In this document: in pieces, positions 1-64,000 of the stretch
Layout of the letters: each line of letters starts with the position of its first letter
How positions within the stretch are numbered: position 1 is the first letter of the stretch
Source: Amoebophrya sp. A120
Lineage: Eukaryota > Protista > Dinoflagellata
Assembly: GCA_905178155.1 (NCBI GenBank)
Contig: CAJINV010000007.1
Span: forward strand, 3,552,265 to 3,616,264
Direction of reading: 5' to 3'
Length of the DNA stretch: 64,000 bases
Position numbers and translations under genes: made by a program
Notes under the pieces: generated by a model
What the model saw: only the letters and a program-made list of their open reading frames with translations
Database searches by the model: none
Told to the model about the DNA's origin: nothing

Positions 1-1612
1 AGATCAGAAGTTCCCTCGGTTCACCAGCCCTTTCGCAACAGCTGGCACGCGTTGTCAAATGGCCAAAACCCCTCGCACCACTCCGACTGCTTCCCCTATG
101 TGGAGCCCGACAATCCAGAAAAGAAAAAGAACTGCTGGAGCCGGTCCGTCACGGCGTGGCAGGTCCGCGGGAAAAACTATCTGAAAGACAAGAAAAAAAT
201 CGCCTCGCCCCCGCCCTTCGCGGTAGGCCTCGCGGCCGACATCTGTGACTGCCCCACGGCATTAGCGGTGTACGCTAGGCATCCAGAGGGATTTGTTCAG
301 GTATAGATTGATGAAACGACTTTTTCAGAACAAGAATTATGATGGATTTATTCGTAAAAATTTTGCGATCTGGATGAAGATATTGATATGATATGGACCA
401 TGAGTAGAACATCTTCACATTGTTCTTCGTGGTACGCCGCGAAATCGGAAAGAATAATCCCAAAATCAACAGCGTTGTCGAAAGGGCGGAGAGGGTCGGT
501 TTCTGTTCGTGCTGAACTTTCGCTTTACCCCGAAGCATATCCTTTGCAAAAGTATCGTACTCGTACAAATGCCCGTCTTGCATGACAGATCTACTTGCAT
601 ACCTGCATCTGCATGACAAGTTGCGCTTTTTCTTCTGCAGAAATTTGTCATACTCCTTCTACTAGTGCGATAGTTTTGTAATGCATAAAGCACATGGTCC
701 TTGTGTGGGCCCTGGACCACAAGGAGTACCAAGACCCGATGTTCCAGAACTTTCTCTCCCTGCCGCCGGAAGAGAAAAGCAAATATTCTGAGTAAAAACG
801 TCCCCACCCCAGAGTTGTCATGCAAATGTGCATGCCAAAAGCATCTCATGCGGAGCCCCGTGAGAAGCTCTTTCTAGGCGAGTTTTGGAGTTTGTGATGC
901 TACAATCAGCATGATATGCTAGATTTATGATGCCCTGCTGAAATAGCCAAACAGGATTACACTTTGAGGGCAGACTTGTGATGCGAAACAAACAAAACTG
1001 GTTGATCTGTCTAGCAGGTTTGCCATCTTGATACCTTTCTGGGGACGTTTTTCCTCGCAATAGCAAACGCTTCAAATTCATCCCGTGCCTCGTCGAAGGC
1101 CCGTGGCTGGTCCGCCAGGCGGTGGGGACTAAACCGGCACTGCTGGGCAACAAAATTAAGTCCGATTGGTACCAGGGGGACGACTTTATAGAAATGTCCG
1201 TCGACATCTTCTCCTCCTCGTACGCCTCGCAAAAGTATCGCACTTCTAGTGCAAAACTGCATCACAATTTTTTTCAAGAACAAGGATGCAAGTTGTCATG
1301 CTATGTCAGGTGCTTAGAAAGAAAAATTAAGTTAGGGTTGTCATGCATGACTGGAATTATTTTTACCTGTGCGATACTTCTTTTGCAGAGGATACCTCGG
1401 CAGCCAGGGCGATTTTGGGGGTGACCAGCGGTGCGGCGCGGAAACTGATTCTGGAATTCGGTTTGTTGCTGGAAGGGCAGTCTGTGGACGAACTACCGGA
1501 GAGGATGATGACCGGATTTCGCATCATTTTCCCGGACCTAGACAAGGCGAGACTGATGTCTCCGGAGGAGGGCATGCCGCTGCTCAAAGGAGGCGGGGCG
1601 GCGCAAGGATAG
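1..1612 (+). CDS. EDR2 C-terminal (DUF1336) domain protein, 5' partial, 5 exons in window
   Basis: Motifs WQVRGKNYLKDKKKI, FLFVLNF, RFKFIPCLVEGPWLVRQAVGTKPALLG, FIEMSVDIFSS, LLEGQSVDELPE are typical of EDR2-C. The frame is continuous after removing GT-AG intron 301-472 and elements 538-687, 784-1062 and 1221-1394, each with one TSD copy. Confidence 0.85.
538..687. mobile_element. TIR introner, family B
   Basis: TATCCTTTGCAAAAGTATCGTACTCGTA ... TACTAGTGCGATAGTTTTGTAATGCATA; perfect TSD AAGCA; removal gives FTPKHMVLVW. Confidence 0.9.
784..1062. mobile_element. TIR introner, family C
   Basis: TATTCTGAGTAAAAACGTCCCCA ... TGGGGACGTTTTTCCTCGCAATA; TSD GCAAA; removal gives EKSKRFKFIP. Confidence 0.9.
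1221..1394. mobile_element. TIR introner, family B
   Basis: TACGCCTCGCAAAAGTATCGCAC ... GTGCGATACTTCTTTTGCAGAGGATA; TSD CCTCG; removal gives IFSSSAARAIL. Confidence 0.88.
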
Positions 1613-2672
1613 CCGAGAAGCCTACCTACGCAATCAGACAGACATCACGACGACGTCGTGTTGTGCATTCGCCACAAGTGCTGGTTTGTTTCTGTGAAAT
1701 CGAGTTCGCCGGTGCAGTTTTCTTCGGTCTTGAAGAGCACTGAACATGTACTATACACCTTTCTCGATATTGAGCAGGACCACTGCTTTAGAGATGAATA
1801 CAGAAATCATATGATAGCGATGTTGAAATAATAATTCTATATTGATCTCTCAAGAACTCGAACTCGATGCTCAATACAATATAAGCTTAGGCTCACCTCA
1901 AGAAACTCTTTCGCAAAAAGTTGACGAGCAATGACTAGAGCTGGAGCTCACGTAATTATTTGAGGCTTTTATTTCAGCAAGAGCTTGTTGCTGGTGTTGT
2001 CATAATATTCCACTGCATCTAGCAGTTTCGACATCATATCGCCGACTCACGACTCTTGGATCTGGAACTTTCGCGGTCCCAAATCTTCGCTGCACCTCTA
2101 TACGCGTTCTGTGGTGGCAACTGGCTGCATCAACTTTATTTCACACTACAGGGCCATGTAAGTCAAGTTTCTGAGCGACGTGATTTTTCGTGTGGCGGTC
2201 ACTTTCGTATTTCTGTGATCTACAACTCGGCGTCGGTCTATAAAACCATGTTGATATAATTACACGTCGGCATAATTCGTGTTTTCTCCTTATACGGTAT
2301 GAATTGTGTCTACTTCGATGTTTTTACGAGACTAACTCCATACACATGACATTCTTTCAAACAAGTCATGATGTTGCATGCTACGAAAAATGCGCACACG
2401 ACGGGTAAATTAATAGCCTTTTAGGGCGGAGGATGGTGAGGACTTGGCTGCAGCCCCCCCCCTCTCGAAGAGGCTACACCGTCGACGCTTTCGTGATTGA
2501 TGGCAAAAGGCTACAACACGAGCCGTTCGCACACGCCAAGCGCTGCAGCAGGGGTACTTGATTTATAATTCGCCCAGCGTTCTCCTTCCGCTGCGAAGGT
2601 GTGCTGGGAGCGCTGGTGGAGGTGTGCAGATTATACGTAAAATCTGCCCGAAGCGCTAAACAAGTTGTCAAG

Positions 2673-5600
2673 ATGACGTCGAACAAGCGCACTCGCAGCC
2701 AGGCCACTAGCCACCACGGCGGTTCATCTGGTAGGAACAACAACAATACGTTTTTCCTTCACGACAACCATAGTGGTCCACCAGTTCCGCACCCGGACAA
2801 CTACAGCCACAATCTCCAGCCATACAAAAAACGAAAGAAGGAGGAATTGAAGGAGATTTTCCGAAGACCTCAATTCGACCCGGAATGGCGACAAAGTTTG
2901 GAAAACTTGTTTCAAAATGTATTGGAAGCAAAAAACAACAATGACAATAAACTAACAGTACAACAAGACACAACATCCGCGAACAAAACTTCCAAATCAA
3001 AACGAAGGAACAGCAAGGACACAGCAGGGATGATGAACAACGACAATTTTCTTTCCAAGCACGAGAAGGAGCAGAAGTTACTGGATCATTTTAACCAGAA
3101 AAACTTTAAGCAGGCGGATGAAACTGCGCTGGAAGCTGCGATCGCGTTTTTGGACATCATGGAGATGCAGAGGAGTGACTTGTTGCAAGAGTTGTTTGAA
3201 AACTTGTCCACGAGTTTTCACGAAAAAATGGAGAAGCTGATAGCGGAAGACGACAAATTTCTGAAAAAGCAGTTCTTCCCCGACACCGAACTGAATTTGA
3301 GCGCAGCGGCAATAGCGCTGAACAGCAGAAGGACAGGAGAGTTGTCCTCGTTGACTACATCAAGTAGTTCTTCTACACAAGCGGTTCTTGTTTCATCTGA
3401 AGGTGGCGAACGGCTGCAGATGATCACGTCGCAACTTCATAGTGCTGAAGGAGGAGTGGGTGATTCCGCTGAAAATCCGGATCTGCAACAAGCCGGTACG
3501 AAAACTCCCAGTGCTGGCGGATCGTCGTCCTCGTTTAGGACGACGACCTCGAATCTGAAACCAGCCACAGCGGAGCAGCAGGCTGCCGCGCGAAACCTGC
3601 AAGCGGCGATCAAGTTTCACCGACAGAAGAAGTTTTTCGGTTCCGACGTGATAGGTGCGCAGGTGTTGCTGGAAGATTTCGAGGAGCGGAAGAGGCAAGA
3701 GAAGCAGAAGAAGCAGGAAATGCGACCACCAGTTTTGAAACCGAGGGACATCTACAAAAACAATCGAGCAGGAGCGGTTTTCCCTACAGGACCACCACCT
3801 GCACCGACTTCTACAAGCGCTTTTGACAATACCTTCAACCTGGCAGAAGTGCATGAACCCGCAGGAAGAACAACAAGAAGTTCTGCCAGTGTAGCTGCCA
3901 GCTCTGATAGCCTTTTCAATGCGGTGTCCGGCCTACTGCAGGAAGAAGAAGAGCAAGAGTTACAAAATGCCGCCAATATTAATGGTGCGACAACAATCGC
4001 GACGACTGACCCCGACCTGCTTCTCTGGCGGACGCAGTCCGCCGCCCAGAAACGGATTCGCTGGGACGAAATTTTGTGCGATTTGGTCCGTTACATCTCC
4101 GTCCCGGAGCTGCAACCGCTGCTGAAACTAGTTTTCCCGAAATTTATCCGGGATAGGGGGCGGACCTTTCCGACCATCCCGCAGCTTGTTCATCCGGGCG
4201 GGGGCCCATCTTCGGGTGGTGGTGGCAATGAGGAAGCTATGCACCTAGCTGCAGCCGCGGAGGATTATTTTCCTCCGTGTTTGATTGTCGACGAAGAGCA
4301 GTTACCAGTGCAGTTTCTCTACGTCTTGTCGTTGATTCCGAAGCCACTATTGGAAACACTCTGTGCAGGAGGTGCAGATGATAAGTCGGACGAGGGTCGT
4401 TGTGTCGACTCACTCGATCTCGTCGATGAAGACAATATCGTATCTTCTACCGATCATCTTCATGACCAGGACCAGATATTACTAGCAGGGCCACCACTTT
4501 TATTGCCTCCTGTTACTCATCATTCCGAAGCACTTGCACGACTTTTTCCGTCTCCTCCTGTCCTTCCCCTTCCGCTGAAACGGGTCATCTGGATATTGAA
4601 CATCCGGCTGAAGCTCGTGTCCGATGTTTTCTCCATTTTGTCGGAGGTGATGCAGAAGGAAAGCTATTCGGACATCTTCCGCTTTCTCGACCACGATCAG
4701 GATGGTATTTTAACCAGGACGGACATTCAAAACGCTCTGGGAAACGCGAAGACCAAGGACAACAAGCCGCTGTTTCGGGGGCAGATGAAGAAACACGAGC
4801 TGAAGGAAATCGAGGACATTTTCGTTTCCGGGAACTGCTCGGTAGTGAAAAGTTTCGGAAGGGAAAGCTTCTTCGCGGATATAGTTGCTGCGGATCATCA
4901 TCACGGTGGTCCTCGTGGGGCCCCCGGACGAGCAGCGGTGGATGAACGCGAGCTGCAGTCAGCTCGTGGTCTTGCTTTTGGAGGTCAGCACGACCATATT
5001 GATTTTCCCACTTCTGCCGGTCCCGACCAGGCGGACTTCAAATACCTCTTTCTCCAGGTGAACGCCTGGCAGGAGTACTGCTTTCACACGAACCAGCAGC
5101 TGTTTTTTATCAACTGCATCGAATGTGTCTGGGTCATCTGAAGTAGAGTGCGCTATATTTCTCATGCACGTTTTGCATAACCTTAACCCATGACGTCTGT
5201 GATGCATGTTCTAGCAGCGCAGGTTTTTTGAGGGCTGTTCGATGCCTATGCTGCAAGAGAAATGCCCTTTTCGCGCAGCAAAAACTGGACTCCTTTTGCT
5301 GCTCATGCAATACAGATCATGCTTTTCGAGTTCAAAGGGAGCGTGACCAGTTGCAGTCGCTCTCCTCCAGACCCAGACGTATTTGCATTGCATATTTCTG
5401 GACGACATACAGTCTCTCGTTCGACGCTACGTCCGCGAGAAGCGACAGCGTCACTGCGGCCTGGCGCTGGCCTGGATCAAGACGAAAGACCGAGCGGACT
5501 TGCGGAAACAGGACAAGACCTTGCAGAAGATCTTGGAGCTCATCGGCGATAGCAGATTGCTATACGTATGACAATGCGCAACTCGACGTCCCCCTCCCCC

Positions 5601-8600
5601 TTATTTGTCATGCAAAATATCAAATCAGCCCTACCTTTTTCCTCGCCCAACCCCCGGGGAGGGAATCCTTGGCCTGTGGCGCTGGGTGCGGGTGTCCACT
5701 ACATGATGACGATGAAGCACTGCTTGCGTGGCAGGTTTCGGATGCGCAAACAGAACTAGAATCGGTCGCAAATTAGTCATACAAAAGCTGCATTTATGCC
5801 ACCGCGTGTGTTGCTCTTGCTGCTTTTGCCCTTCAAATGAGGTGGAGGGGGCGGGGTTCTTGTGCACTCTCATAATGCGCGACTCTAGTGCAGTACTTGA
5901 CGAGCGTGCGGACCTTGGAGGAGGAGAACGACGCAACAGGTGCAGGTGCTGCTGACCAAGCTGCAACTGGTCCACTTCTCGATGATGACCAAGAAGGTCG
6001 TGTAGGTAGTACCGGAGCTGCTGGTGCCCCTACTGCCAGCCACGCAACAAGAAAGAAGAATGGAGTTCAAGTTCTTGGAGAAGCCATGTATAATAATTCT
6101 TCGAGAAGTTCTGGTGCTTCACCACGACACGTCGGCCGCGATTCATCTTCACAAAATCAACTTGAAGATCCCGAAATGTCAGAACCGGGCTTCACCCGCT
6201 GGCGACCAAAAACGAGTACGGACTTCGAGCCGTATTTGTCTATGTTGAGGAATGACCTATTGATGAGTTTCGTCGACCGCAAAGTGCTCGAGCCGAGCTT
6301 AGAGGGCCGGTGGGTCGTGGAGTTGCTTCCAGCCCGGGAACTAGCGCCGCAGGTGGATTACTACTGGCGGCAGGCAGTGCACACGTCGGCTGCGGGTGCG
6401 GGTACAACAACTGGCATAGCTTCAGGCACAACGATATGGGACTGTCAACTGTTACATTTTCGACTCCTGTTACATGAGCTTGTAATTGCACAAGTATGAG
6501 CACACTTCTCCTGTATTCGCAATTGTGTGTTTCAACTTTTTATATCTTTTCTTCTCAAAGTCAAAAGTAGTCAAAGGGGGAAGTTGTACCCCTAGCATTA
6601 CAAGATTCTTGTAACAAGAAACTCCGCACAGATTTACTACGTGCTGTTTAGCCCCCCACCTTCGCAAGTTTGTCATGCGAAGCAGCTTGATCGTGTGGAT
6701 CGATGACGATGTTGGTAGTTTTGCATGGTAAACCCATGTAACAGCTGAGAGCGTTGTAACGTTTGGGAATCCCATAGACGACAACTCCAGGCGGAACTCT
6801 GTCGAAGACGAGCCACCCAATGACACCCTCCTCCAGTGGCGGCCTCGACCGGATTCTGTCCTTTGCCATGGTCTTGACCCGCGACGGGCGAGCGCAGGTT
6901 TCTCTGAAGCAACGCGATTTGTTGTTGCTCCTAGGTATCAACATGCAGGACAATTCAACTGCATCGCAAGCGTTGCACTACGAGGACATGCTAGCTGCTG
7001 CGGCGGAGAGTAACGAGGAAAGGACGAGGGGCGGGAAAAATTTTGCTGACATCCAGCAAAATATTAACAGCAATTGCTACCATCTCACGTCCACAAATTC
7101 TCAGTACAAGCATTTTCAGCCGATCAGCAAGAAGAAACTGCTGCAGGAGTTGGTTCCGTCTTCGAGCCTGAAGGTCCGGTGCCGAAACCCAAATTTGACG
7201 ACCAACGCTCAGTGGAAGTATTACGTGCTGGACACGGCCGAGAAAATCCGAGAAGTACAAAACAAATTTTCGCAAATCGAGTATCGCCCCGTGATTTACG
7301 ACTTTTTCCTCGAGCTGGATTACGCAAAGACCTTGCACACTTCGTTGAGTACTACAACTACGGTGAAAAATGGTAAAATTACAACTAGTACACCAATAAA
7401 TAACATGATGCTGAACAAAGTCTGTCGCAACCTTCACCTCCGCTTTGAGATGCATGAAGACATGAAGCTGATGTACGGCACTTGGCGAATCGCGGAGAGG
7501 GACGAAAATCCGCTGCAATTATCAGCCGAGATAAGAGCAACTGCAGCTCAGCAAACTGGCACAGGAACTACAACTACAGCGGGACCGGGCGTGGTCTCTC
7601 TTTCCCAACAGCAGCAGGTGGATGTGAAAGAGTTAAAATGGAACAGTTTGTGCTTTGCAAAACGAAAGTTGTTCTCAAACTTTGTGAATGCGAAGACGAA
7701 CGAAATCTGGGACGAGCAGGCGTGTCTGATTGAAACGTTGGACCGGCGGGTCATCCCCCAGTGCGGACTCTTCGGCATCAACTCGGACACCGATGTCGAG
7801 TTGAGCCAACTTTTAGTGAAGCAGTTGAACAGCGGCAGCTACTCGGGTGGAGGAGGTGTTGCGAATGCAAATAGTAGCTCTAATGTAACAACTGCTGGCG
7901 CATCATTAAGTGGCTACGAGTCGAAACTACTTCAAACCGCGTTTGTGCTTGCCGATCCAAATTTACACGTGAGTCTCGCGCGGGGCTTGTGCAGCGTGAG
8001 GCAATGGAGCATGCTGAATTCTGGCGCTGCTGGTTCGACAACTACCGGCACTTCTTCTACTGCGTCGCAACATCAAGAACTCTTGACCAACAAGAAAAAC
8101 AATAAATCGCAAGAGCCTGTTGCTGGACTTTCTGTGCTTATCAAATCTCTCGCTGGGGTCGAGGAGCAAAACCAAAAGCCGCGCGGCGGCGAAGACCCGG
8201 GGGGTGGACCAAAAGGTGACCAAAAGAGCATCTTCGACCGTAGCAAGACCCCACCACTCGGAAGCAATGTGGGGCTCATGCAAGGCAGAAATGCAGGCAG
8301 TGGTCGAACAGAGAAAACGCCACGGCTGCTAAACTCAGAAGATTTAATGTTCGCTTCCAAAAAAGCAGCGGGAGCAAACAAATCGCCCACCAAAATTGCG
8401 GCTAAGCAGCATCATGACAAAGAAACCGATCAGAAAGAGAAAGACGACGGCAACAGCCTCCCTGTACCAAAAAACAGTTGCGAGGCCGCGGAATTCCTTT
8501 CACTGGCTTTGCTGTGGCTCGCAGCGCACGTCACTCAGCTGTACGAAATCAGAGCGGCAAGAACGATGACGACGACGAGTACAACTACTAATCGCAGTGA

Positions 8601-10034
8601 AATTGGTGGTAGTAGAGCACAAGATTCATCTCGCAAGCCCAACAATTCCTCGACCAAGAAGGTTCCGCCTTTCGAGCATTTCTTCGAAACCATACTGTTA
8701 GTCCCGTCACAGCCGCCGTCCGTAGCAGGCCCCGCTAGAGGAACGGTAGGTGGAGGTCCATCCTCTTCAGCGCGAACAAACAGCACACGGGCCGGTGGCT
8801 CTGGATTTCTTCCTCCAAATCCTCGACCATCTTCGCAACAGTCCTCTGCTGGAGGTTCAGAACCGCAGCTGCAGCCAGTGTCTGTTGCGTTGCTGCGATT
8901 GCCACGGCACGTGTTCAACCACTCCTGGGAAACGCCACAGAAACTCTTTCAATCCGGCGGCACGAACGCGGAAGCCGAACTGGAAAGCGCTTTTTATAAC
9001 GAGGAAGACGACCTCCAGCACCTCGTGAACAAGCAAGGATCTTCAAACCACGGAACAAAAATTAAGGACAACAATTCTACTTCTTGTCCTTCCCATTCCG
9101 CCAAGCAAACCTTCGCCACCCTGTGTCTCCTCGCATTCACGCTTCGCCACTTATGCACTGCAAAAGTATCGCTATCGTACTCGTAGTCATGATTCCACGA
9201 CCCTCGTCGCATGACCAATCTACTTTAGTGACTGAATCAACATTACAGATTCCATTTTTGTTTCTGAAAAAAATCGTAAATGCAATTCCTACTAGTACTA
9301 TTCTATGCTTTTGCAATGCATACCACTGCTGGGGCGCCGATCACCTTTCGTTGCAGCCGACGTTACTGGAACTGAAGCCGGTGATTGAAACTGGGTTGGA
9401 GATGAGGAAAATGGCGCCAGAAAATTCTTGCGAAAGCAATGGGGTGGTGAGAAACTTGGACAAAGAGGACTACGAGAATCTGATATTAAACGATGTTGAG
9501 CAGCATCATGCGGTTGCGGGGCTTGATCATCACAACGGACGAGGGGACGACACCAGCAAAAACAGTACATCAAGTACAAGACCGTCAAAAATCTCCTGGG
9601 CAGTCCAGTTGTGGCTGCAGACCGTTCTGAATGTCTGCGGCTCCGAAGACCGAGCGACGAGGTTCAACGCGGACATGCGAACAACGGTTCTAAATTTTCT
9701 CTGCGATACCGTGGTGCGCAAATCGGTGTTCGGGTGCTTCATCACGCTGTCGCTGTTGGCGAAGATGTTTTTTAAACTGTCCAGCAAAACGAACTGGGCG
9801 AAGAAGAAAGACGCGGACTACCTGAAGATCCTCGCGAAGACGGGGAGGATACAGGATGAACGCAATGCGGATGGTTTTTTTCACTTTCAAAAATGGTTCG
9901 AATCTATTGTCGACGCGTACGACAGTCTGAATTTGCAAAACGTGAGCAGCAACGCAGATTTAAGAGAGGGGGATGACCATTTCATGCACGAAGAGTGGTA
10001 CTCCTGCGAGTTCCACGAACGGGCACCTCATTGA
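2673..10034 (+). CDS. NELFB: NELF-B/COBRA1-like protein, greatly expanded by low-complexity insertions; 3' end uncertain
   Basis: Ordered motifs AIAFLDIMEMQRSDLLQELFENL, YISVPELQPLL, LKRVIW, NQQLFLDDIQSLVRRYV, LQKILELIGDSRLLYATLVQYL, LRNDLLMSFVD match the order of conserved NELF-B blocks as recalled. Introns at about 5108-5394, 5567-5874, 6494-6777 (GT-AG) and 9152-9322. Confidence 0.7.
5108..5394. mobile_element. TIR introner, family A (degenerate)
   Basis: TATCAACTGCATCGAATGTGTCTGGGTC ... GACCCAGACGTATTTGCATTGCATA; TSD TTTTT/TTTCT; removal gives NQQLFLDDIQ. Confidence 0.82.
5567..5874. mobile_element. TIR introner, family D
   Basis: TATGACAATGCGCAAC..CCCCCTCC ... GGAGGGGGCGGGGTTCTTGTGCACTCTCATA; TSD ATACG/ATGCG; removal gives LLYATLVQYL. 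Confidence 0.8.
9152..9322. mobile_element. TIR introner, family B
   Basis: TATGCACTGCAAAAG ... CTTTTGCAATGCATA; perfect TSD CCACT; joins ORFs 6820 and 9084 as LRHCWGADH. Confidence 0.9.
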
Positions 10035-11639: not shown

Positions 11640-14600
11640 ATGCCGTCCGCGTCGAGCAGTAGCAGCTCCGCGGGGGGAGCTGCGGGGAGCAAAAACGGCA
11701 AAAGGGAAAATAAGGGTCCTGGGGCAGCAGGTGCTCCTGGTGCCTCTTCCAGCTCGGCCTCGGCGTCCTCATCAACGGCGAATAACAATAAAAATGCAGC
11801 ACCAGCAGCGGCAGCCCCTCCCGCGAGCAAGAAGGCCATGCTTCCCCCATCGTTCAAGCCGGTCAAAACGGAGAAGAAGGAGGAGGTGCTTGCGGTCACG
11901 AATAAACGTGGGCGGATAATTATGGAAGAAAAAAAACTGTGCAAGTCGAAGTGTAATAATCTGTAAAAATGTAAAGCAGGCAGCACAGTTATTCTATACA
12001 CTTGTCATGCTTGTGGCCATTCGTCGTGAGGTCTTAACTTATTGCATTATTAATATTTCTAAGAGCGAGGTAACAAATGACCCGTTAACTCGCACCCGCG
12101 AGTTAGCCGTCCGCCCGGCCGGCCGGGCGGTTAACTCGCGGTTAGAAATGTAGACAAATCGAAAGGTAGCACAAATTTGAATCGAAGTGCTCGCCAATCC
12201 TAATTTGTCTACACTTCTAACCGCGAGTTAACCGTCCGGCCGGCCGGGCGGACGGCTAACTCGCGGGTGCGAGTTAACGGGTCACTTGTTACCTCGCTCT
12301 AAATGTGTTCTTTATATCATGTCTTTTTCCCGTACGTAGTAAGTACCAGCTGTGCATGACATGATGCTTTCTGTGTCAACATTCTGAACAGATTTGCAGC
12401 CTCCCATGCTACACTGACACAGATTTTTTCTGGGATAACCATCGAAGTGAACGAGAAGCACGAGGGTGAAACCGTTGTGATGTCTGGGAAGCGAAGCGCT
12501 GTCGTGACGCAGGATACTCAGCAGGGCGAGCCGTTGACGAAGGGCACGGGGCTGCTGGGCAACTCTTCGCGGCCCGGGGAAGAAACCGACGCGGACGGGA
12601 AAAAGAAGCGAAAGCCGAAGGACGCGCTGAAGGCCCTAAGGATGGCCCACGAAAGAAGAAGGAAGAAGTTTATCCTATCCTAATGTGCATCAAAAGTGTA
12701 GATCGTGTTCTTACTTGTAATAGTTCTTCCATACATTTTTATAAAGAAGATGCAGATGATGTGGTCTATGCTGCATCTCTCTGATTTCCCACCTAGTGCC
12801 TGATTTGGCACGTACAAAGTCCATATGATCGCACACTGCATGCAATCGTTACTATTCTAGTTGCACAGCAATCAGAACGCTTTTGCAATGCATACATCCC
12901 GGACAGTGATGACAGCGACATCGACGATGAGAATTATCGCAGGAAAAAGCGCTTCACTTCAAGATTGTGATGCAGAGGATGGAGCAGAGAAAGGAGTGCT
13001 TGTCTTCTTGATGATCTTGCTAGAAACCAACGTAACTAAGACATTGCATTTGTTTGATCGTGGAAGCGCGCATGGCACCAGTTTTTCTCTGTCATGCGGG
13101 ATAGACTTGCCTGCATGGCATGCACATCATCCTGCAAAGTAGGCAACAACAACATCACGTGAAGTAAAAGCTCTCTTTTCGTTCTATAAGAACGCCCCGG
13201 TATTTGACGCCGCGCACTCCGCACTGCTCACCCCGGTCAAGGATGTGGCAAAAACGTGGCAAGTCGACATCCAGAAAGAGCTCAGCGGGTACGATTTTAT
13301 TTTTCTTTGTGGGAGCTGTGCATGAAAATGTTTGAACATGCTTCGGCTTTTCTCTGTTCGGAACATGCAGTCTTGTACGTAGTGGTCGCATCGAGAAAAT
13401 AGATAAATTCTTCAAAAGGGACACTTTATTCATTGTTTCTTGATAGCCCTAGCTCTTCGGAAAGCGACAGGCGCTTCTACGTCTGCAGGAGCAGCTGCAG
13501 CAGATACATATTTTATATTCAAGATAACTACTACTGCAACTGAAACTGATACTGAAGGTACTTTCACCTACTGCGCAAGCTGAAGTTTGGCGGTAAAGAA
13601 TTCAACATGAATTTTGCAGAAGCCGCTCTTCTTGTGCAAAACTTAAGCAAACAAAGAAAATAAAAGAAATGAAACGCGGCGCGTCGTCAACGTTGCAACG
13701 GCTAGTCGCACTGCTTTTGCTTCATATTTTTTTTTTTTTAATGTAGTACTTGGCGTCATGACCGACAGTCAACTCCGACAGCCTCCATAAGAGCTTGAAT
13801 GAATGTGGAACGCTTGCACCATGATGAAGTTCTTGCGCAGAAGACGCTTGAACAAGAGAGGGCTGCATGCCAAGCCCTTGCGCCATTGTCACGTTGAGTA
13901 GACTCACTCTCTATTGAGTTCTTGTGCGTGCCTCTTCTAGGGTTAGGGTATTTATAGTACCACGAAAAGTATGTTGCTTTACCGACGGCGACGATCTCCG
14001 CCCAGCGTCAGACGGCGCGCGGCCGGCGCGTATTTTCTGTATTTTCGTTTCATACAAAACCACCTCCCTGTACCTCAAGAAGATGGACCAGCTGCACGTA
14101 TCCAATGTAAAAACGTCCCCACCCCATAGTCAAGATGGGAAATCGGCTAGACAAGTGCGCAGGTTTTGGCTGTTTTGCATGACAAATCTGGGCTCGGAGT
14201 GCAGTGCTGTTTGACGTAGTTCAGCAGCATCACAGATCTCGTATAACATGCCGACTGGCGCATTACAAATTCCAAAACACGACTAGAGAATGCTTCTCAT
14301 GGGGCTCCGCATGGCAAACATTTTGAGCATGCAGATTTGCATGACAGCTCTGGGATGGGGACGCTTTTGCACAGGATAGCACGAGAAAGTGATGAAGCAA
14401 CTGGAACTGCTTTGGTCGAAGGGTGACGCGGAAAAGAAAAAGAAGAAATCGCGGTACCGCAAAGCCTAACCAATGCAAAAGACGTGTCGTAGTCGTACTA
14501 ACTGAAGAATGAATAGCATGCATGATGAGAAATCGTGTTCCTTTTTTTAGCCAGATCAGTATGACAAATTCTTGGTTGAGAAAATTTGTCATGCAATTTG

Positions 14601-17600
14601 TATGTACTAGTGCCTGCGATATAAGTTTTGCAATGCATAAGGCCCAAGCGCTGAGCGACAGCTTTCAGTGCGAGTTCCTTTGTGACATCACACCCTTATG
14701 AGAGTGCACCTTCCCGCCCCTTCGACCCTAGAGAAATGCTCATGCAAAATACAAAATCTATATTCAGTTTGCGCCATTCATTCTCATCTTTCATGACAAG
14801 CGCACGGCTCCAGTTGTCCCACTGCGTCTATTTCTATTCGGCGCATGAACTTGTTACGCACGGTCTCCACGTTGCTTGCTGGTGTTTACTGTATTGCTTT
14901 TGCTTGATGTCAAGTCTCAGTCATACAACAAATGAGCGGGCGATGGAGTCAGTTGTGCGCTCTCATATCGTTTCGTAAAAACCACGGTGCGGGTAACATA
15001 CGCATTTGAAAAAAATGATGATTTTATATCGTACAACTGGCACAAGGGATACGTATACGAATGCGAGGAACTTCATTTTCGAACTGGAAAAACAGAAGTA
15101 TGCTGGTGCTGACGAGGCAGTTTTTTGATTTTGTTTTAAGTAGTAATTTTTGTATAATTTTCATCATGCAGCAGCACCGCAAGCATAATAAGTACGTAGG
15201 TGTAGTACTACTACTATTGCCAATGCCATTGCGATATATTAAAAAAAGACTTTTGGAAGTGATACGAACCTGACGGACGAGGAGCTTGAGGCGCAGGCAA
15301 TAAAAGAAACGGTTCTGCGGCGAGTCCCACTCTGGCTCATGCCCCGCGAGGAGGGGGATCGAAAGCGAAAGGAGTTTAAGGTTAGTGGGGAATTCGAATT
15401 ATTACGACACAAGCAGATCGTCATCATTCATCAATTATGTTCTACGATGTGAATTATGGCACCGAAAGCAGGAGATGAGCAGATCGAAATCTTCACTTTT
15501 TACATGACGGACCTGGGGGCAGAAGCTGTTGCAGAAGGTCACGTGACAGCATTGGATTAACATCATTTTCATGTGTACTTAAGTACTACTTCACGTTCAC
15601 TTTACAACTTGAACTCTATCAGATTCAAGGGTGCACCGTGCACCGTGGCGGAACGTACCTTCTTCTGGAGCAGGACTTGAGGCATTGTGACCTGGAGGGT
15701 GATGACATGGAGATTGACATTTACCCCCAGAATATCCAACAAAAAAACTGTTTCACTGTGATGATCTTGCAAGATCTGCATCACAAGTTTGTAACACATG
15801 ACACAGAAAATTTTCCATGCGCGCTTTCCCAGGGAAGACACGGTAGAAGAACCAACATGAACATCTTGCAGGTGTAGCAAGACATCAAATCGTTCTGTGC
15901 TCCAACATTCTCTGCCTCACAAGTTCACGACAGCGAAACAGCTTTTTCTTGCGATGCAAAACATGCCGCCGCCACCAGACCACCTGCAAAACGTGCGCGA
16001 CCAGATGGAACTCGAGCAACAGCTGGATGAGAGGTATGAACTTGACTTAGCTCATCTGAATGAGACAGTTCTGCATATTACTGAAATTGTACTCGTCACA
16101 TTTGGAAGATTTGCGATTTAGTTTTCAACTGGTGAGGACACATCGTCCCCACCACTGAAAATATTCAAACGAAAATTTTTGTCGTCCTTGTGCAACTACG
16201 CGACCACCAAAATTTGTAAATTTGTACGTGGTCCAAAACCAAGACACAAACATTTTCGACACAACCAGCGGTGTGGGTTTCGACGACTTTGATGTGAACG
16301 TTTCCGGCACACCTCCGATGCAGGAAAACAAGAGCAAAATCGACCCCCTGTCGGGCGCAAAGACGCCGGGCGGGAAGACGCCTGCGAAAACTCCCGGTGC
16401 GCAAACACCCGGCGACAAGCTGAACCAATCCGGTTTCGGTGGGACACAGGGTTTCGACGGCGGCGGCGGAGCCGGACCGAGCCAAGGCGGCGCGGCAGGC
16501 GGTGGGATAGGAGGAGGGCTACCCGGTGGCGTAGCGCCGGGCATGGCGGGAGGCGCGGGGCAGGGTATTGTTGAGAATAAAATTGGTTCCTGCTGCCCGA
16601 CGACCATGCGATAGAGTTTCATGCATTGCTGCGTCGCGCTATTCGTTTGCGGTTTTTTACATCGGTGATTTTGTTTTTCTGATTCTATTACGATACGTAA
16701 GTACCAAACTATTTCTGCAGCTACGTAGTTATTTGTTGTACTAGTAGTACCACGTAGTACCTTCTTTTGCGCGACTTGATGTCTTCATCACCAGGTGGGT
16801 CTGCTGTGTGCTCTTGTTGTCACGAGGAAGTGGAACCCAGGAGGGGTTTGCAACCTCCAGGGGTTCTGCTTGCCTGTGCAAACCGATCACGCGCAGCACT
16901 TCTACGAGAAGTAAGTAGATGAAGCTGCAAGAAGCCTTCTTGGCAAAGTAGAGTAAGCAACCCCTATCGTCCCATATCATGATTTTATCGCAGGTGCATT
17001 TCCAAGCCAGTCACAGGGCATGAATATGCAGCCGGGGCAGACGCAGCTGCCGCCATTCTTCGTCCCGCCACGAGAGCGCCCGGAGGACATGAGTACGTCG
17101 ACGTACTGGCACTTCATGGACCCCTATGCGGGGGTTCCGGGGGGCGAGTCCCACACCCAGTACCTCGACGGCTCGAATTCCCACTGGAAAGACCTGCCAA
17201 CGGATTACATCCTCTGTCCGGACCCGATGCGGGCGCACATATGCATTGCAAAAATATCGTTATCGCACTCGTCTAAATAATTGCAACTACAGCACGTCTC
17301 GTGCATGATTTTTACAGGTTAGTTTTCTTGGCTGAATCTGCACTACAAATTTCATTTTTGTTCTGGTGAAAATTTGTAAGGCCATTGATATTTAGTGCGA
17401 TGAAAATTTGAATTTTGCACTGCATAGCACTTGAAAATTAACAACCGCCTGGAAGAAGCGGATCGGTGGGAAAACATCTTTGACCTGGACGTCCTGATGA
17501 ATCGCGAAGACCGACCAGCTATGCAGTGCAAATATGCCGCGGTCCGGATTTGCATTTGTCATGCGGGGTTTGAAGGACAGAGACAACATGAATAAGTGGG

Positions 17601-20600
17601 GGCACTTTGTAATGCTGAACACGAACAAAAAAAATCACGACAAGCAGATGAGGAAGCCGTGTCATGCTTCTATGCCGTGTAAGAGCACGACTTTTCGGCA
17701 TACTAAAAGGATTATCACCACAACTTTTTCTTTTCTGCAACATCTTTCCAGACCGAGACATATTTGCATTTGATGACGGACGTATTTCTGGAGGAGGAAT
17801 CGTTGGAGGCCAACGAGCAGAAACCCCCCGAATACAAGCACGAAGACGACCCGGGGGCCATCGTGATTGATTACGACGTATGCATTGATGCAATAAATAG
17901 GTCTTGGTCTCCTCGAAAATTGAAGAACATTCTTTCATACTTGTGATGCGAATCTTGAAGTCGTTTGACAACTGGGAAAAATCTGGCTTCCATGGTCATG
18001 CACTACTGGTTGTACTTAAGTACCACAGTAGAGTAGTAGTGGGGGTTTTATTGTCTCGAACGACCACAGAAGGGGACGCTTCTCATGCAAACTAGGTATG
18101 GAGCTGCCTCCGCAATAATTTGCCACGGAGGAAATAAAATTACAGACCTTCTTACAAATGCAAAGACTTTTATTGCTGGAGGACCACAACAAGTGTAGTT
18201 TTTGCTCTCTTCAACATCCAGTCTGAGACCACTCCATGTTTTCATTTCATACAAAGCCCTGGAGAAGGCCCGCGACGAATGCGACTTGAAAGCCGTCGAG
18301 ATGCTGAATTTGGCCTATGCCACGAACTCGGTGGACATGCTGTTCCAGCAAAACATGAAGGAGAAAGGCGTGATTCCGAAGAAGCGCAACTATTTGAGTC
18401 TCTCCCTCGGCTTCTCCGCCGACTGCGCGGACCTTGAGGACATGTTCGTGGAAGAGCAGAAAAACCGGCGGAAACAGATGAAGGAGGTGCAAAAGGAGAT
18501 GAACATTGGGCCCAGTTTGAACAAGAAAAGCCGACAAATCGTCAACGGCTTGATGATCGACCGGGGGAACGCTCCAGATGACAACTTTTACAAGCCCCTG
18601 AACGAGCAGGACTTCCAAGGCATCGGGACGCTCGAGGAAATGATCAAGATGAACGGGGCTGCGACTGCTCAGCAGGGGTCCTCGACGTTTGGGGGCTTCG
18701 GCGGAGACGGAACCGTGGGTGGAGGGTTCGGTCCTGGTGGCGGTGGTACAGCCGGCGGGGGTTTCGGGTTTCCCGGGGACGATTCTTTTCTTGGCGGGGG
18801 GGACGGCGGAGTAGACATGATGTTCACCCAGGATGGTGGCATGACCCCCGCCCAGCCGTCGCCGTACGTGGATGACATTGTCGGCGAAGACCCGTTTCTC
18901 GACGTGGCGCCCGTCCCGGAGTACCTGGAGCATGAGGACATCGTCGCGCTGGAGGAAATACGCATTGCAAAAGGCTCGCGCAAGTAGTGTATAGCTATAG
19001 TGGAATTCGGATAATTCCAGGAGAAACGAAACGTCTAGATGTGATGGAAGATGTGCATCGTTGAGTTTTATTTGCAGCGCAATTTATTGTATCATCATTG
19101 TTCAATCACTGCCTGAATCACCATGTGAAAGCGGGCAGATTTAGATTTTGCATTTCATTTGGATTTTTTTTTTGCACCATCGCAATTGAGTTCATTGCTG
19201 TTATACGACGAGCGCGACACTTTTTCTCAGGACAGGAAATCGGCCTCACCGAAGAGGAAATGTGGAAGAAGGTGAAAGAAGAAGAGCTGGCGATCGTAAA
19301 GGAAGAGTTCAAGGACTTCGCCGGTGGAAAATTTGAGGGGCAGAACGTGGAGCTGTTGCTCAAGATGAAGGCCCGACTTGACGAGTTAAAGGAGGAGCGG
19401 CTGGAAAAGGAAAGAAAATACCAGAAGGAGCTCGGGGAGTGGATGCGTATTTACTTTCTGATTCGGCCTATAATCTACTTGCAGTACGACCCTTATAATC
19501 ATGCTCATAATTCTTAAGTATAAGAAGACTATCCTTGTTCCGCTCTGATTGCCTATTTGTTTTTACGTCGCGTACTACAGTCTTGGAAATCCATCCTCGA
19601 AGATGCATTCGCCGTTCTGATTTTTGTGGTCTTGCCACTCTTGCCGAAGATGAGACAGAGAAACCAACGAAAAAAAAACTATCAGGTTACGACACGAATA
19701 ACGTATCAAATGTAAAAATGTCTGGGTCTGGAAGAGGAAGGTTGCCAGGTTTGTCATGCATATTTTACATGACTCAGGATGTCTGTAATGCATGATCTGG
19801 CATCACATATTTTTCGAGGCCTTCTTAATGCCTATCCCGCATGACAAATGCCCTCCCCGCGTAGCACAAACTGGGCTCCTATTGCTGGTCATGCAATACA
19901 GATTTTTTTACAGTCCAAAGTTAGCATCAGAAGTTCCAACCTTCCAGACCCAGACATTTTTACACTTGATATAACGGTCTCGATTACCATGCCGTCCATT
20001 GGAACGGTCTTCCAGAATTGTATGAGCGGGTAGAATATCAAATGCAAAAGTGTCTGGGTCTGGAAGAATGCAGATTTTTGTCATGCTGTTTTTGCATGAC
20101 GCAAAATGTCTGTCATGGAAGCCCTAGCATGACAGATTTCGAGAAGCTTCCGCATTGCTTAATCCGCATGACAAATCCCCCATTTTAGGGACAGGAAATG
20201 GGCACCTTTTGCTGCCTATGCATGAGAGATTTGTCTGTGTTGTGAAATGCGCATCACAAGTTCGCATCCTTCCAGACCCAGACACTTTTACATTTGATAT
20301 AGAATCGTGGGAAGATGCGGTTTTATATCAAACGGAAAAAAGCTAGCGCATCTTCACGTATATTTTTGCACAAACATTGGGTTGTGTGTGTGTCACAGAA
20401 ATAAAGTAGACTATTTATTACATAGACCACGCACATATGGTACGAAAGATTTGACATGCTGGCTTTCTTTTACTGGGATATTATACCGATATTAGAGGAG
20501 GACAAAAAAAAGCCCGAGTTCAACTTTGGGGACTACACGGCGATTATGCTAGACGAGTTAGAGCGGCGTAAACGACACGCGCCGGAAAAGAAGGACCACC

Positions 20601-34442: not shown

Positions 34443-34522
34443 NATCATGGCTCATGCAAAAGAACGTGCGTGACAAGCCTTAGAATCTTCCAGACATCAT
34501 CCAGGGATATTTGCAATTGATA

Positions 34523-56600: not shown

Positions 56601-59600
56601 CATCTTCCCGCCCCGCGAATGAAGATGTGCTGATCAAACGGCCAGAAGTAGACGAAAACAAACTCACGCAAACCCACTGGACCAGTGGAATGAAGATCTC
56701 TCCACGCAATCCTGACGACCTCTTTGCCATGGAGCTGGAAAATGAGGAACAAGATGATGGTCCTGCTCCTCATTACAAGAAGGCTTTCGACCTGCTCCGC
56801 TTTACCAAAAACGAGCTGCAGCCCCGCCTTAACCGGTTTTTCCGGTTCAGCAAACATGACCAGGTTGTTAGAAACGGCGAAGCGAAATTGACGCAAGAGC
56901 AAAAGGACCACTACTTCCGGAGGATCCGCGCCGCGCTCGGAGGAGACGAGGAAAAGGCCCTGCGCCTATACAAGACAGTGGAAGAGTGGGCCGAGGCGAG
57001 AAACCTTTCCGGGAAGGACGAGCTCGCAGCTTTGCGAAAGGAGGGGGTGTATGCAAAAGATCTGCTATTCCTCAACCGTATCCTGCTTGCCAATATCAAA
57101 TGCAAAAGTGTCTGGGTCTGGAAGAATGCAACTTGTGATGCTGCATTTGCGTGTCTAAAAAGTTTGTGTTGCATGAGCAGCATAAGGAGTCTAATTTTTG
57201 CCACGCGGAGAGGGCATTTGTCATGCGGAATAGGCATCAAGAATCCCTCAAAAAAGAAAAACCTGTGATGCTAGGGCATGCATCACAGTCAGACGTCATG
57301 GCTCATGCAAACCGTGCATGACAAGTCTCAGAATCTTCCAGACCCAGACATTTTTGCATTTGATAGCCAACCCGGACGAGTGGGAGGCACAGTTCACTTG
57401 CGAGGCGACGATGGACCGGTGGTGGGCCGCGGGAGTGGAGAAATCAAAAAGTGCTTCTTCTTCACGAGTAGAAGAGGACAAGGAGGACACGACCGAGGGC
57501 GAGCTTCTCGACGTAGTGCACAAATTGGAGCGTCTTTATCTGCTGTCACCTTCCTCATCTGCTGGTACCGACATCACTGGCAGGAGCGCCGTCGGAAGCA
57601 GCAGCACTGGTCGTGCCCCCCGCGGCGCGCCGACATCAGCACAAGAGCGACGTAGTGCTGATGTGGCAGCAGATGATTTTGATTCAGAAGCACGTCGGAC
57701 ACAAAAAGAACAAGAAGTGCCTGCTGTTCGTGTTCTTTCATCGTTGCTGGAAGAAGATGTTGAAGATGCTACAGCTCATCGTCCCGAGAGAAAAGCCGCG
57801 CTGCTCGTACGGAACTTGCTCCAAAAATCTACTCGGTCTCGTCCGACGGGGGCCGATGCTGAGCGACAAAGGATTCATCTCCCGGGTGGAGGATCGCAGC
57901 AAATTATAAGCGATCCGAGTATTGCAACAAGAACAACGCTGACCACACCTTCATCCTCAGCGGGAACTTTTGCTTTGAACAAGAAGAGCACTTCGGACCT
58001 CCAGTACGAGGAGATGGTCCGTATTGGAAAGGACTACGTAAACGCAAACCTCAACGGGCATCACAACAGGTGGTCCGAGGCCTTGCGATTCGCCTGGCTA
58101 ATCCAGCAGGGAGGTGCAGTGATTGACGTTGATCTCCTACGATTTCTGTCCTGGTTGGAGGACCTCATTCGTTTGATAAACAGAGATACAAAACAGAAGG
58201 ACGGACGAGTAACAGACCGAGAAAAAGTTTTCAAGGTTTTCGAGGAGTTTGAGGAGGAGCAGTGCCAGGCGAACTTGGTGGAGCTAGGAAAAGCATTGGC
58301 TTCTCAGGCGGAGAAATTTCTTCAGGATAGTTTACGCATTTTTGCAAAAGTCCCTCGCCCGGATGAACAATTGTGTTTGTTGAGGCACGGAAATACCGAA
58401 TGTGCATATACTTCTAGCACACACATAATCATGCCCGACTGGTTTTGCAGATAAAATAAAACAAGAAGATGAGATCTGCGTTTGTCAACATTTTGTACCA
58501 GCACAAACCCAATGGGTATGATCGGGCGATTGCGATGCTTTTGCACGGGATAGGAGTCAGAAGATACCGACTTGCTGTCGTCTACGTGTGCGGCCGCGGA
58601 CGCAGAGTTTGGTGACCAGCCAGAGCAGGACCCCAGTGCCGGCGCAGCAGCATCATCAAGCGGGCAAAGATCAACAAGATGCGAAAGGGACGCAGGAACA
58701 ACTACACTTGAGCAGGACTTGCTGATGATTTCAGAAGAAGGCCAAAATCCGTGGCTTCCATTGTTGGACTTGGCAGCTAGAGCACGTGCCGCTGCCATGC
58801 TGGGAAAAACAAAGACGCGCGTCGGCGTCGATCTTCAGCATGAAGACAGAAAAGCACAGGAGAAACAAAAAAAAGGAGACCTACTCCGAAGAGGACGAGA
58901 TCGAGATGATGGAATATTAAAAGTAGCACGTGCACCAGAACCACTCCAGTCAAACGCAAAGCACGAGTTTCTGAAGCGTTTCGTGGAAAGGTTGAACTCC
59001 CTTAACTCCGAGGTGATCTCAGCAATAATTGGAAAAGGACACGAAGAGGTGGTGTTCGGCGCACAGAAGCACACCCACGCCGCGGACCATTTGCTCACGC
59101 AAAGCAAAAGCTTTGCCGCGCTCTCAGGCGACGAAGTTTCTACTTCCGGGACCATCACCAGCTCCTGGGCCCACAGTCCCCCGAAGGTCGTCAAAGAGGT
59201 AATCTTACCACTACAATTGCGGCTGTGGACCATCCTCAGGGACGCGCTGGACAACTGGGAGAGTGAGTTTCTGCAGGAGGAGTGGAAACAATTCGTAAAC
59301 CAGGTTGCATACCCATTGGAACAAAAAAATAGTAGTACCGGGCGCGGCTGCGAAGGCTTACTACAATTTTTATGGGATCACATTGGCATGACAAGATGAC
59401 TCCTTTCCTACCTTATGCAACAACAACATCAAAGGATTGTCCATCTTTTAGCTATGCTGAAATTTGAATTTGTAGTGTTGCAACATGTTGTAGTACCTGT
59501 ACTGGTTTGTACGGGTAGTGCGCCACCCGGTATTTTTAACACTTGCTTTTTATGTTGCATACTGCTAGACCGCTCTTGGTGTCCTTCGCCGCACAGGACC

Positions 59601-61549: not shown

Positions 61550-64000
61550 ATGTCGAGCGCCCACTTCGCGAAGCTACGCAAGCTCGATACCGCGGCCGAC
61601 GACTTTGTGAAGCGTTATGGTGACGAAGACACCGAGCCGGCGGACGCCGCCCCGTTGCGGAAGTTGCTCGCGGCCTTGGCGGATGTGAAGAGCCTGTCGT
61701 GGAAACAGGGCGTGGTGATCGACCATGCTGCCGCAAAGGAGCTGGCCCGGCTCGAGGAAGAAGCCAAGGCAGCGGAGGCGGGGGGAGGGACAGCCACAGC
61801 TACCAAAGGCACTAAGATGGGCAAGAAAAAATCCTCGCTCGACAATCTCTCCGAGCCCCCCGCGGCGAAAAAGCGAAAAGTGAAGGAAGAAGTGAAGGAG
61901 GAACCCGAGGACGACCACGACAAAGACAACCAGGATGGAGAACAAAATGCTGATAACGCAGCAAGTAATTTCCTGCAGAAATTCGCCGTCGGCAAGGGCC
62001 AGCCGACCGAGGTGGAGTCGGAAGAGACGAAAAAGCTAAGGGAGATCAGCAACAAACTTTTGCCGGTGCTGCAGAAGTGCATAAAATGGGGCGCGGACGA
62101 AAAGACAGCAAACGCATCCAAGAGCAAAACCATGGAACGCGAAACGGTCGAGTGCTACGGGTACAGCCCAGTTTTAATGGCTAGCGAGGACTAATTCATC
62201 ATGTTCGCTGACGCAGTCAACATCGCTTTTTTATACAGAACTTTTTTATAACACTTTGGATATGATCGCAGTAGGAGCTTGTTGCACAGCACTACTTTGA
62301 AGTTGTTTATGAAACACTGCATCGATAATTCCGACGACGAAATGCACCGTTGTACTACACCTACTTCAAAACAGCGTCGTCCCACTGAAGGCCATGGTCG
62401 CTTACCTGGAGCTGCTGACCATCAAGTACATCCCGACAACCCTTCCCGTCGAGGAAATCCACGTGGATTTGATCACTTCGCTCAAGCAGATTTTCCGCGA
62501 GCTGGTCCAGTCCTGTTTTGACTACCTGAACAACACACAGGCGAATATCACCTGAAAATTAACCATCCCCATCCAATTTGTCGTGCAAAACACGTAGCAA
62601 GTTCTGTGTTTGTCATGCAAAAAGTGGATGGGGATGGTTAATTTTCAGGGAATAGGGAAGTGGGGCATCGAATTCGACCCGATCGTAAAGGAGGAACTGC
62701 ACAACTTCGGCTGCGAAGTGTTGATCAAACTCCACGAGTACGTGGAGAGGAGGATGAACGCCATCCCCGGCCATTTGTTGGATCAGTTGATCGTGCTTTC
62801 CGTGGGCGTTTTCTACTACAACGCGACCACAAACCGGCTCTGCGACGCCGCCGAGAAGTTAGCGATCAGTTTCTACGCGAAACCGGCGACAGCGGAGAAC
62901 ACGTCGAACGTGCGGAAGTCGATTTTCCAGGAGATTTTTGTCAACTTGAACAAAATCCCGCACAAGAAGATGAAAAGGAAGGAATTTTTGTCGCAGTCGG
63001 AGAATTTAACCGTTTGGACCAGGTTCTTTCTCCGGTTGCTCCAATCCGGCTGCAACCCCTACGATTTCCAGATGGATTTGGCGTCCACCGATGATATTGA
63101 CCAGATGGTCAAGACGAACAGCACTATGGTGACGGACGAATATCTGAAGAAAATGTACGAAGAGACGAACGCCCGCGTCGTCACGTTCGCGTGGCAGTTT
63201 GTCCGCACGGTGCTGAAGCCGTCCACGAAGTCAAGGGCCTTGCCCGACGAGGCGAAGGAATTGCTGGAGAATAGTTTGACGGAACTGATGTACGCCACGT
63301 ACGAGCTGCCGCAGTACCCGGTCGCGGTGCTACTGTTGGAAAAATTCACCAGGATTTTCCAAAACTTCGCCGTCTCCTCTGGGGAAAAAGTGGACGCGTC
63401 AACGAGGGATGTCAGTTGCAAGATGCTCGCCTTAATCCAGGCCCGGTGGCACAAGGAAGTGCAGCTCGGCGCCGCGGACGACTGGGAGGACCCGTACACC
63501 ATGAATATGAAGTCCCGGCAGGTGGCGCCCGATCGGGACGAGGCGTTGGACGAGTTGTTCAATGATGATATCGCAGTAGGAGATGACGGGAAGAAAACCG
63601 ACCCAGAGGACGCAATTATGTTGAATAACGAGCAAGATTTAGCCGCACTAGGTGCGGCGTTGGCGGGGAGTAAATTGCCGGCTGTAGAGCAAGCAGCTCC
63701 AGCCGCTGATGCAGCTATGGACATCGACTTTGATAATGGAGCGGCCCCCGCGAATCCGAACGAAGCCGGAGAACAGATAAAAGACGAGCCGAAGCTATGG
63801 ATGCGTCAGGTTTGAAATCGTCAAAGTTGAAATAGTTTGTCATGCATAAAACGGATACCAGTTTGTTAGACCTACAGTCTGTAGTCGGTGCGTGACAAAT
63901 TTTCCCGGTCCTGGAAGCGAGTCTGTCATGCGGTTTAGGGCAAAAGGGCTGCCTTCTGTCATGCTAGTTAGCAGTCCAACTTTTGACCCTTACCAGGACT
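61550..64000 (+). CDS. SCC2: Cohesin loader Scc2/Nipped-B-like protein, 3' partial
   Basis: Motifs RKSIFQEIFVNLNKIP, LLENSLTELMYATYELPQYPVAVLLL and RDVSCKMLALIQAR resemble NIPBL HEAT-region blocks (EEIFTSLARLP, LFENFVQDLL..PEWPAAELLL, RVASLDYLGTVAARL). Introns 62161-62374 (GT-AG), 62546-62654 and 63810-63996. Confidence 0.78.
62546..62654. mobile_element. TIR introner, family E (109 bp)
   Basis: CCTGAAAATTAACCATCCCCATCCA ... TGGATGGGGATGGTTAATTTTCAGG; TSD GCGAA/GGGAA; contains an in-frame TGA, so it must be spliced out. Confidence 0.9.
63811..63992. mobile_element. Degenerate introner whose TSD provides GT-AG ends
   Basis: Residual IR GTCAAAGTTG / CAACTTTTGAC, several TGTCATGC motifs, TSD TCAGG/CCAGG. 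Confidence 0.6.

Follow-up and report, generated by a model that had tools for sequence, protein, structure and literature searches.

Introduction

Introners, with roughly 30,000 copies, make up about 17% of the assembly of the dinoflagellate Amoebophrya sp. A120 (those of strain A25 have TTA ends), and in the parts of Farhat et al. (2021; PMC7789003) consulted here both their mobiliser and their splicing are left unexplained. We analysed a stretch of 64,000 nucleotides of this genome (contig CAJINV010000007.1, positions 3,552,265 to 3,616,264 of the forward strand; hereafter the window), in which a short internal motif, TTGT(C/G)ATGC, recurs in several families of short inserted elements. These elements match the published A120 introners. 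Both have the same inverted repeats, which start from TAT and continue with seven looser bases and at least three A, and both are flanked by direct repeats, given there as 3-5 nt at the boundaries and as 5 bp in the legend of Fig. S19. They are also alike in length (about 240-260 nt there), in their non-canonical splice sites and in lying in co-oriented genes. The family lengths found here resemble those of terminal inverted repeat (TIR) families in the consulted table rows of Gozashti et al. (2025; PMC12130899). Neither paper, in the parts consulted, mentions an internal motif common to the families or the spacing of such a motif; nor did we find either described in the literature searched, which included PMC9860276 and PMC11282704 but neither figures nor theses, papers under subscription or two supplementary files of PMC12130899. 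What appears new is the shared internal motif and its spacing; the elements themselves are already published.

Several described transposons share part of this build; the papers cited for them were likewise consulted in part. IS3EU/GingerRoot (PMC10045372) has TA..TA termini and TIRs in common with the elements, but its usual target site duplication (TSD) is 6 bp, as against 5 bp here, and its transposase was not seen here. From this likeness, an integrase-related DDE enzyme would fit the TA..TA termini, and for A120 family 38 the entry in PMC12130899 reads 'Ginger; 5-bp TSD, TA/TA termini'. In the Ginger1/Ginger2-TDD group (PMC2836005), the 5-bp TSD is shared with TDD-4/5, whereas the ends are TGT (TGTNR) there and TAT here. 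The subterminal repeats of hAT (Hermes) and CACTA elements, short internal sites bound by several transposase subunits, would be alike if our reading of the motif holds; however, the TSD is 8 bp in hAT and 3 bp in CACTA, the latter with CACTA ends (PMC10741241, PMC10368747). A first-pass annotation of the window, made from its letters, had likened the motif to the sites of these two superfamilies, but the 5-bp TSDs and TAT ends argue against an affiliation with either. In Tn7 and Mu the TSD is likewise 5 bp, and each end holds several transposase sites in direct repeat; their ends are TGT or TG, unlike the TAT found here.

The motif and the elements that carry it

The window contains 50 matches to the strict motif TTGTSATGC (29 on the + strand and 21 on the - strand), whereas 100 dinucleotide shuffles gave a mean of 1.51 and a maximum of 6. 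Its commonest 9-mer is GCATGACAA. Inside the 7,270 bp of elements modelled as families (about 11% of the window) lie 43 of the 50 matches, and the remaining 56,730 bp hold 7. The recurrence claimed by the first-pass annotation is thus real, and so is the scarcity in long exons (one strict match in 26,930 nt). Eleven of the 13 positions that it quoted are exact; the others move by one nucleotide, from 57315 to 57316 and from 63838 to 63837. The enrichment over exons and other sequence that it had put forward as a check was found for the elements, and none of the four GT-AG introns joined in RNA contains the motif.

The window is a block of eukaryotic genes on the + strand, broken up by elements of 109-323 bp. 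Each has TAT-N7-AAA(A) ends and a 5-bp target duplication, and further in it has an inverted repeat that is specific to its family. The TAT-N7-AAA pattern was first spotted by eye in the longest inverted repeats and then made the search pattern; position 14 is A in 83% although this was not required. Without any demand for a TSD, 20 strong TIR pairs were found; once two cross-pairs are set aside, 18 remain, and an exact 5-bp TSD flanks 13 of them. TSD lengths of 2-9 were tested in the 20 pairs, and no 6-bp or 8-bp match was found. Extra copies came from a pattern scan that gave 152 loci from one second assembly (14 of the 64 parts of the collection; 455 kb after merging); these loci were picked by the end of family F0, which is therefore over-represented. 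Window and loci together yielded 306 elements, as against 16 in a control with the TSD shifted by 3. They form nine families of 3-167 members, with lengths such as 262, 151, 211, 109 and 311-323, and 19 singletons. Consensuses of different families align over 13-52 nt only, apart from the related pair F4 and F6. The differing interiors that had been reported therefore stand, with this one exception, but the families are not 'otherwise unrelated', since all have TAT-N7-AAA ends and 5-bp TSDs.

Across window and loci, the density of the motif is 6.6 per kb in modelled elements (754 in 114,121 nt) and 0.21 per kb outside them (84 in 404,579 nt). The strict motif is present in 247 of 287 family elements and a loose form in 286, with all nine families represented. 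The site is wider and looser than the 9-mer, about A-Y-[YT(G/C)TV(A/T)TGC]-W. One- or two-base variants (CTGTGATGC, TTGTAATGC, TTCTCATGC, CTGTCATGC and CTGTATTGC) are each enriched 10-27 times, and in 477 de-duplicated contexts the information content does not reach beyond about -2..+9 relative to the site. The mean number per element is 0.8-2.3 for the strict 9-mer and 1.3-5.3 for the loose form, so that the earlier 'several times per element' does not apply to the strict form. Both orientations occur in the set as a whole, as had been stated, but not in two families: the consensuses of F3 (~280 bp) and F5 (109 bp) carry full motif copies on one strand only.

As for the position relative to the ends, a site lies 31-47 nt inward at 16 of 16 family ends. 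In F0 the distance from the end to the first site is either 32 or 39-42 nt, with hardly any values between (39 ends at 32; compare the elements at 41562 and 29414 with that at 19704), a split that may go back to a single subfamily event. As a general rule, the motif is not a copy of the TIR end, since at one mismatch or fewer it agrees with only 44 of 612 ends, nearly all of them in F0 and F1. A viral collection contained no match to either of two family TIR patterns; a paired-motif pattern gave 68 single matches, 53 of them without a third site within 200 bp and with at most 5 sites, which we took as chance.

Spacing of the sites

Same-strand pairs at 31, 32 and 33 bp, start to start, number 179, 99 and 60 and fall into 34, 25 and 15 distinct spacer clusters, whereas any other same-strand distance up to 130 gives at most 14 clusters. 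In the window alone, 18 same-strand pairs lie at 30-33 bp and 2 at 9-29. A pair at 30-33 bp is present in 8 of 8 family consensuses (F4 was dropped as kin of F6), making 14 pairs against a null mean of 2.4, a count reached in 0 of 20,000 random placements. Because the 30-33 bp interval was picked after inspection of the data, any 4-nt interval was then allowed, and 0 of 3,000 trials reached the observed count. Tandem duplication was rejected as its source, with a spacer identity of 25-28% against 27% in the control (n=76). The first site of a direct pair has the strong TTGT form in 63 of 75 cases. Opposite-strand cores or half-sites peak at +15-17 and +48-49 (260 distinct contexts), which suggests that the sites form a lattice of about 16 bp. 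A distance of 31-33 bp corresponds to three turns of B-DNA, and this may be the reason for the spacing. Window elements with such pairs include the following.

538..687, F1 element (~150 bp), TSD AAGCA; motif at 580 and 611 (-, 31 apart) and at 645 and 676 (+)
19704..19971, F0 element (~262 bp), TSD TAACG; direct pairs 19751/19783 (+, 32) and 19893/19924 (-, 31)
29414..29674, F0 subfamily element with the direct pair 29495/29528 (33)
34539..34994, adjoining F1 (34539-34695) and F0 (34732-34994) elements with three direct pairs (34614/34645, 34774/34806 and 34916/34947)
36939..38237, a short gene holding four elements (F1 36939-37082, F3 37166-37488, F0 37604-37856, F0 37976-38237), among them five direct pairs spaced by 30-32 bp
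41562..41812, F0 subfamily element, TSD CACGG; sites 41602/41633/41666, spaced by 31 and 33
46718..46988, F0 element with a perfect 35-nt TIR, TSD TCCCA; direct pair 46907/46939
57094..57365, F0 element, TSD GCCAA; direct pair 57133/57164
62546..62654, F5 element with two + sites 32 bp from each other (62578 and 62610)
63834..63967, weak F0-like stretch where the window ends, with the direct pair 63923/63956 (33)

The gene at 36939-38237 has about 300 codons, and its four elements, from three families, lie within 1.3 kb.

Conservation of the site and a protein that would read it

Trees were built for 349 copies from five families, and changes were counted in the invariant motif columns. On internal branches there were 91 changes where 431 were expected (ratio 0.21), and on terminal branches 374 where 825 were expected. 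The motif columns were taken from the consensus, which biases these counts towards conservation, and the terminal branches contain unsampled transposition history, so that a role in spreading and a role after insertion are inseparable there. For the terminal TAT, the observed and expected changes were 0 of 84 on internal and 57 of 160 on terminal branches. Since the invariant columns change about five times less than the interior on internal branches, the site matters for the lineages that spread. As in known subterminal repeats, a short site stands near both ends and is conserved in spreading lineages. Among 12 non-canonical introns joined in RNA, motif density drops as the TSD decays (rho -0.64, p 0.025).

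The best reading is that one protein reads all families, because the same site is shared across interiors that do not align and is conserved along spreading lineages. On this sequence evidence we think it more probable than not that the motif is the double-stranded-DNA binding site of a protein mobilising all families. A multimeric transposase, or an obligate partner of it, would assemble on the element ends by occupying sites separated by about three helical turns, in many cases with an inverted half-site about 16 bp further along. The bound protein would then engage the TAT ends, and insertion would follow with a 5-bp stagger. Continued spread would be limited to copies that retain the array. 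By way of the paired ends, the host would excise the element with one copy of the duplication, which would restore the coding sequence; in a copy that no longer moves, the array would decay. A shared site with fixed spacing could serve as bait for the protein and as a filter for autonomous copies; hundreds of 'strain-specific families' would answer to one machine, and the stated open question on the mobiliser becomes directly testable.

Several observations weigh against this. Motif change on terminal branches is still 0.45-0.48 of that of the interior, as selection after insertion would also give. A first pass had given a TAT constraint of 0.29 in coding and 0.85 in non-coding copies with a classifier that leaned on the joined frame, but the contrast was gone when the flanks were scored separately (85 versus 12 copies). 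Sites are scattered through the element interior, beyond the near-end positions, and the family consensuses may share ancestry and hence not be fully independent. At the variable fifth base, 15 of 26 distinct inverted pairs with a distance of 15-17 bp are complementary, where 36% was expected, which fits hairpins. In 15 of 16 folds, pairing is predicted more often for motif bases than for the rest of the interior. No transposase or integrase domain was found in 331 open reading frames (ORFs) of window and loci (~0.5 Mb, well under 1% of the genome; 480 of the 585 ORFs of 120-199 aa were unscanned). In section 16 of PMC7789003, A120 is reported without a detected transposase, and its authors concluded against transposase mobilisation.

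The missing transposase and the interior position of many sites would both suit a host DNA-binding or architectural protein that binds the array in place of a transposase; by opening chromatin or bending the ends, for instance, it would let carriers spread better. Such a protein is compatible with every DNA-level result. However, the motif is rare outside the elements, in exons as in the other sequence counted above, so that it has no clear host use, and it is lost from old introns; we regard this explanation as unlikely, if the least unlikely of the alternatives.

A second alternative needs no protein reader. The motif would be a by-product, either of hairpins (in RNA or single-strand DNA) between opposite-strand copies or of spaced blocks shuffled from one ancestor. 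The predicted pairing and the excess complementarity at the variable base are what hairpins would give, and a shuffled ancestor is suggested by the plain kinship of F4 and F6 and by the end architecture common to all families. At the third base of the same inverted pairs, however, complementarity shows no excess (65% versus 62%), the consensuses of F3 and F5 are one-stranded, and predicted motif-to-motif pairing in F3 is just 0.00-0.21. The covariation term of ten F0 copies is unfavourable (+1.49), and a hairpin does not need a fixed sequence. Neutral inheritance would not retain site and spacing amid spacers of random identity, nor would it give a five-fold lower rate of change. We consider a by-product slightly more doubtful than a host protein.

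An element coding for a mobilising protein was looked for among longer elements. No autonomous-looking long element of up to 15 kb was found in window and loci. Two long candidates were rejected: one is a cluster of three short elements, and the other, a split F0 copy, contains no long ORF. In PMC12130899 (rows 1-40 of 58 A120 rows in one table), an A120 family that bears Copia/Gypsy-like ORFs between its TIRs is listed with a 5-bp TSD and TA/TA termini; it is a candidate source of the enzyme. One of the loci encodes a C-5 cytosine DNA methylase domain (L017:1-1083).

Removal of the elements from transcripts

RNA-type contigs of one sample skip the elements. Sixteen introns were read, namely 15 of 24 joints and one more, and 4 of them are GT-AG while 12 have TAT-type ends. 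Transcripts drop the element plus one TSD copy. Thirteen joints in 11528-17234 produce a 593-codon open frame on the + strand, and contigs from a DNA-like run cross this region unbroken. Only one splice register fits 12 of the 12 non-canonical joints (9147-21594), starting 1 nt before TAT and ending 4 nt after ATA, and the joints at 13643 and 14998 permit no alternative; the consulted parts of PMC7789003 describe the splice position in A120 introners as variable. The features that bear on splicing are listed here.

784..1062, F3 element (~280 bp), TSD GCAAA, within an EDR2_C-domain gene on +; motif on + only at 815, 892 and 976
1221..1394, F1 element, TSD CCTCG; motif at 1259 (-), 1293 and 1338 (+); RNA-type contigs start at 1395
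9152..9322, F1 element, TSD CCACT; RNA-type contigs lack it together with one copy of the TSD and join 9146 to 9323
13644..14054, decayed non-canonical intron without a strong motif, skipped in an RNA-type contig
14099..14378, F3 element, TSD GCACG, spliced from a + gene; motif on - only at 14177, 14227, 14260 and 14339
14999..15264, decayed non-canonical intron with TAC-N7-AAA / TTT-N7-ATA ends, spliced; motif absent even at the lenient threshold
15733..15956, F2 element (~210 bp), spliced; motif at 15778 and 15914 (-)

The first-pass annotation had named, besides a mobilising transposase, a dedicated splicing factor as the possible single reader of all families. Such a factor would bind the motif in RNA, or in DNA during transcription, and aid the removal of non-GT-AG introns, perhaps chiefly of new insertions. 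The distribution of the strong motif, present in 8 of the 12 non-canonical introns and in none of the four GT-AG introns, would agree with this, as would the constraint that persists on terminal branches. In addition, an inverted pair looks identical from either strand, and no U1 small nuclear RNA (snRNA) was detected in Amoebophrya genomes according to the consulted parts of PMC7789003. However, four of the 12 introns have no strong copy and two have none at the lenient cut-off, and the spliced introns without motif include those at 12676 and 14999; the intron at 14697, among the four, belongs to a family with different ends. The F3 consensus has six copies on one strand, and F3 elements stand in the orientation of the host gene in 3 cases and opposite to it in 8 (7 unassigned, 1 unscored). 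Among 155 strand-assigned elements, 16 have forward-only and 17 reverse-only motif copies and thus no strand preference, with a strand classifier validated solely on its own training ORFs (94 of 94). The F3 element at 14099-14378 has antisense copies only, yet is spliced, whereas that at 784-1062 has sense copies only, and its removal with two neighbours opens a 178-codon EDR2_C frame (no joint displayed). The three-turn spacing would also suit duplex DNA better than RNA.

Since elements with the motif on a single strand insert either way and introns without it are spliced, the motif is probably not a splicing signal. The spliced introns without motif, and the fall in motif density as the TSD decays, speak against a required role in this small sample, as the first-pass annotation had said that decay in old introns would. 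The claim of one protein for all families stands as the best reading, while its splicing-factor branch is disfavoured; we hold this branch to be more improbable than either a host protein or a by-product. Splicing likely needs the paired ends and spreading the internal array, and the two are separated by the single splice register.

A broader proposal would couple spread and safe removal. One unrecognised protein would read the 16/32-bp lattice and mobilise all families; it could be an integrase-like enzyme that resembles no known eukaryotic superfamily, or else a host factor that was co-opted. The same protein would also mark new insertions for U1-independent splicing, with cuts placed at a set distance from the paired ends. 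This is speculative, and we give it as little credence as the splicing factor.

Further observations in the window

The remaining elements and motif copies of the window are as follows.

5108..5394, diverged F0 element; loose motif at 5159, 5197, 5253 and 5307
5605..5613, motif copy on +, in an element of a further family with ends by eye at about 5567-5873
20036..20299, F0 element, TSD TAGAA; motif at 20078, 20127, 20166, 20220 and 20251
28728..28836, F5 element (109 bp), TSD ACGAG; motif at 28760 (+)
41872..42073, F4/F6 element, left part, right end not found; motif at 41915 (+) and 42048 (-)

The further family has ends TAT-GA(C/G)A..TG-C(A/G)CAACTC, recognised by eye, at 5567-5873, 14697-14967 and 35070-35410, and the motif is present in it. 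The F5 element at 28728-28836 plus one TSD measures 114 nt (38 codons) and lies within an open frame at 28357-29574, so by its length it could be read through if unspliced.

Two regions with joints have additional features. The spliced intron 11919-12440 contains a 98-nt, 97% perfect inverted repeat at 12062-12300, similar to a miniature inverted-repeat transposable element and with different ends. At 19449-19971, an RNA-type contig joins 19448 to about 19971, and the 10 letters between match about 19687-19696, likely a micro-exon between two adjacent introns.

Near-identical direct repeats lie at 34264-34442/40010-40188 (179 nt) and at 39434-39536/40423-40525/42527-42629 (about 100-140 nt). 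The stretch with these repeats is non-coding and contains two N bases and a truncated F4/F6 element, and the repeats are absent from the fetched loci. They are either a local duplication or an assembly artefact.

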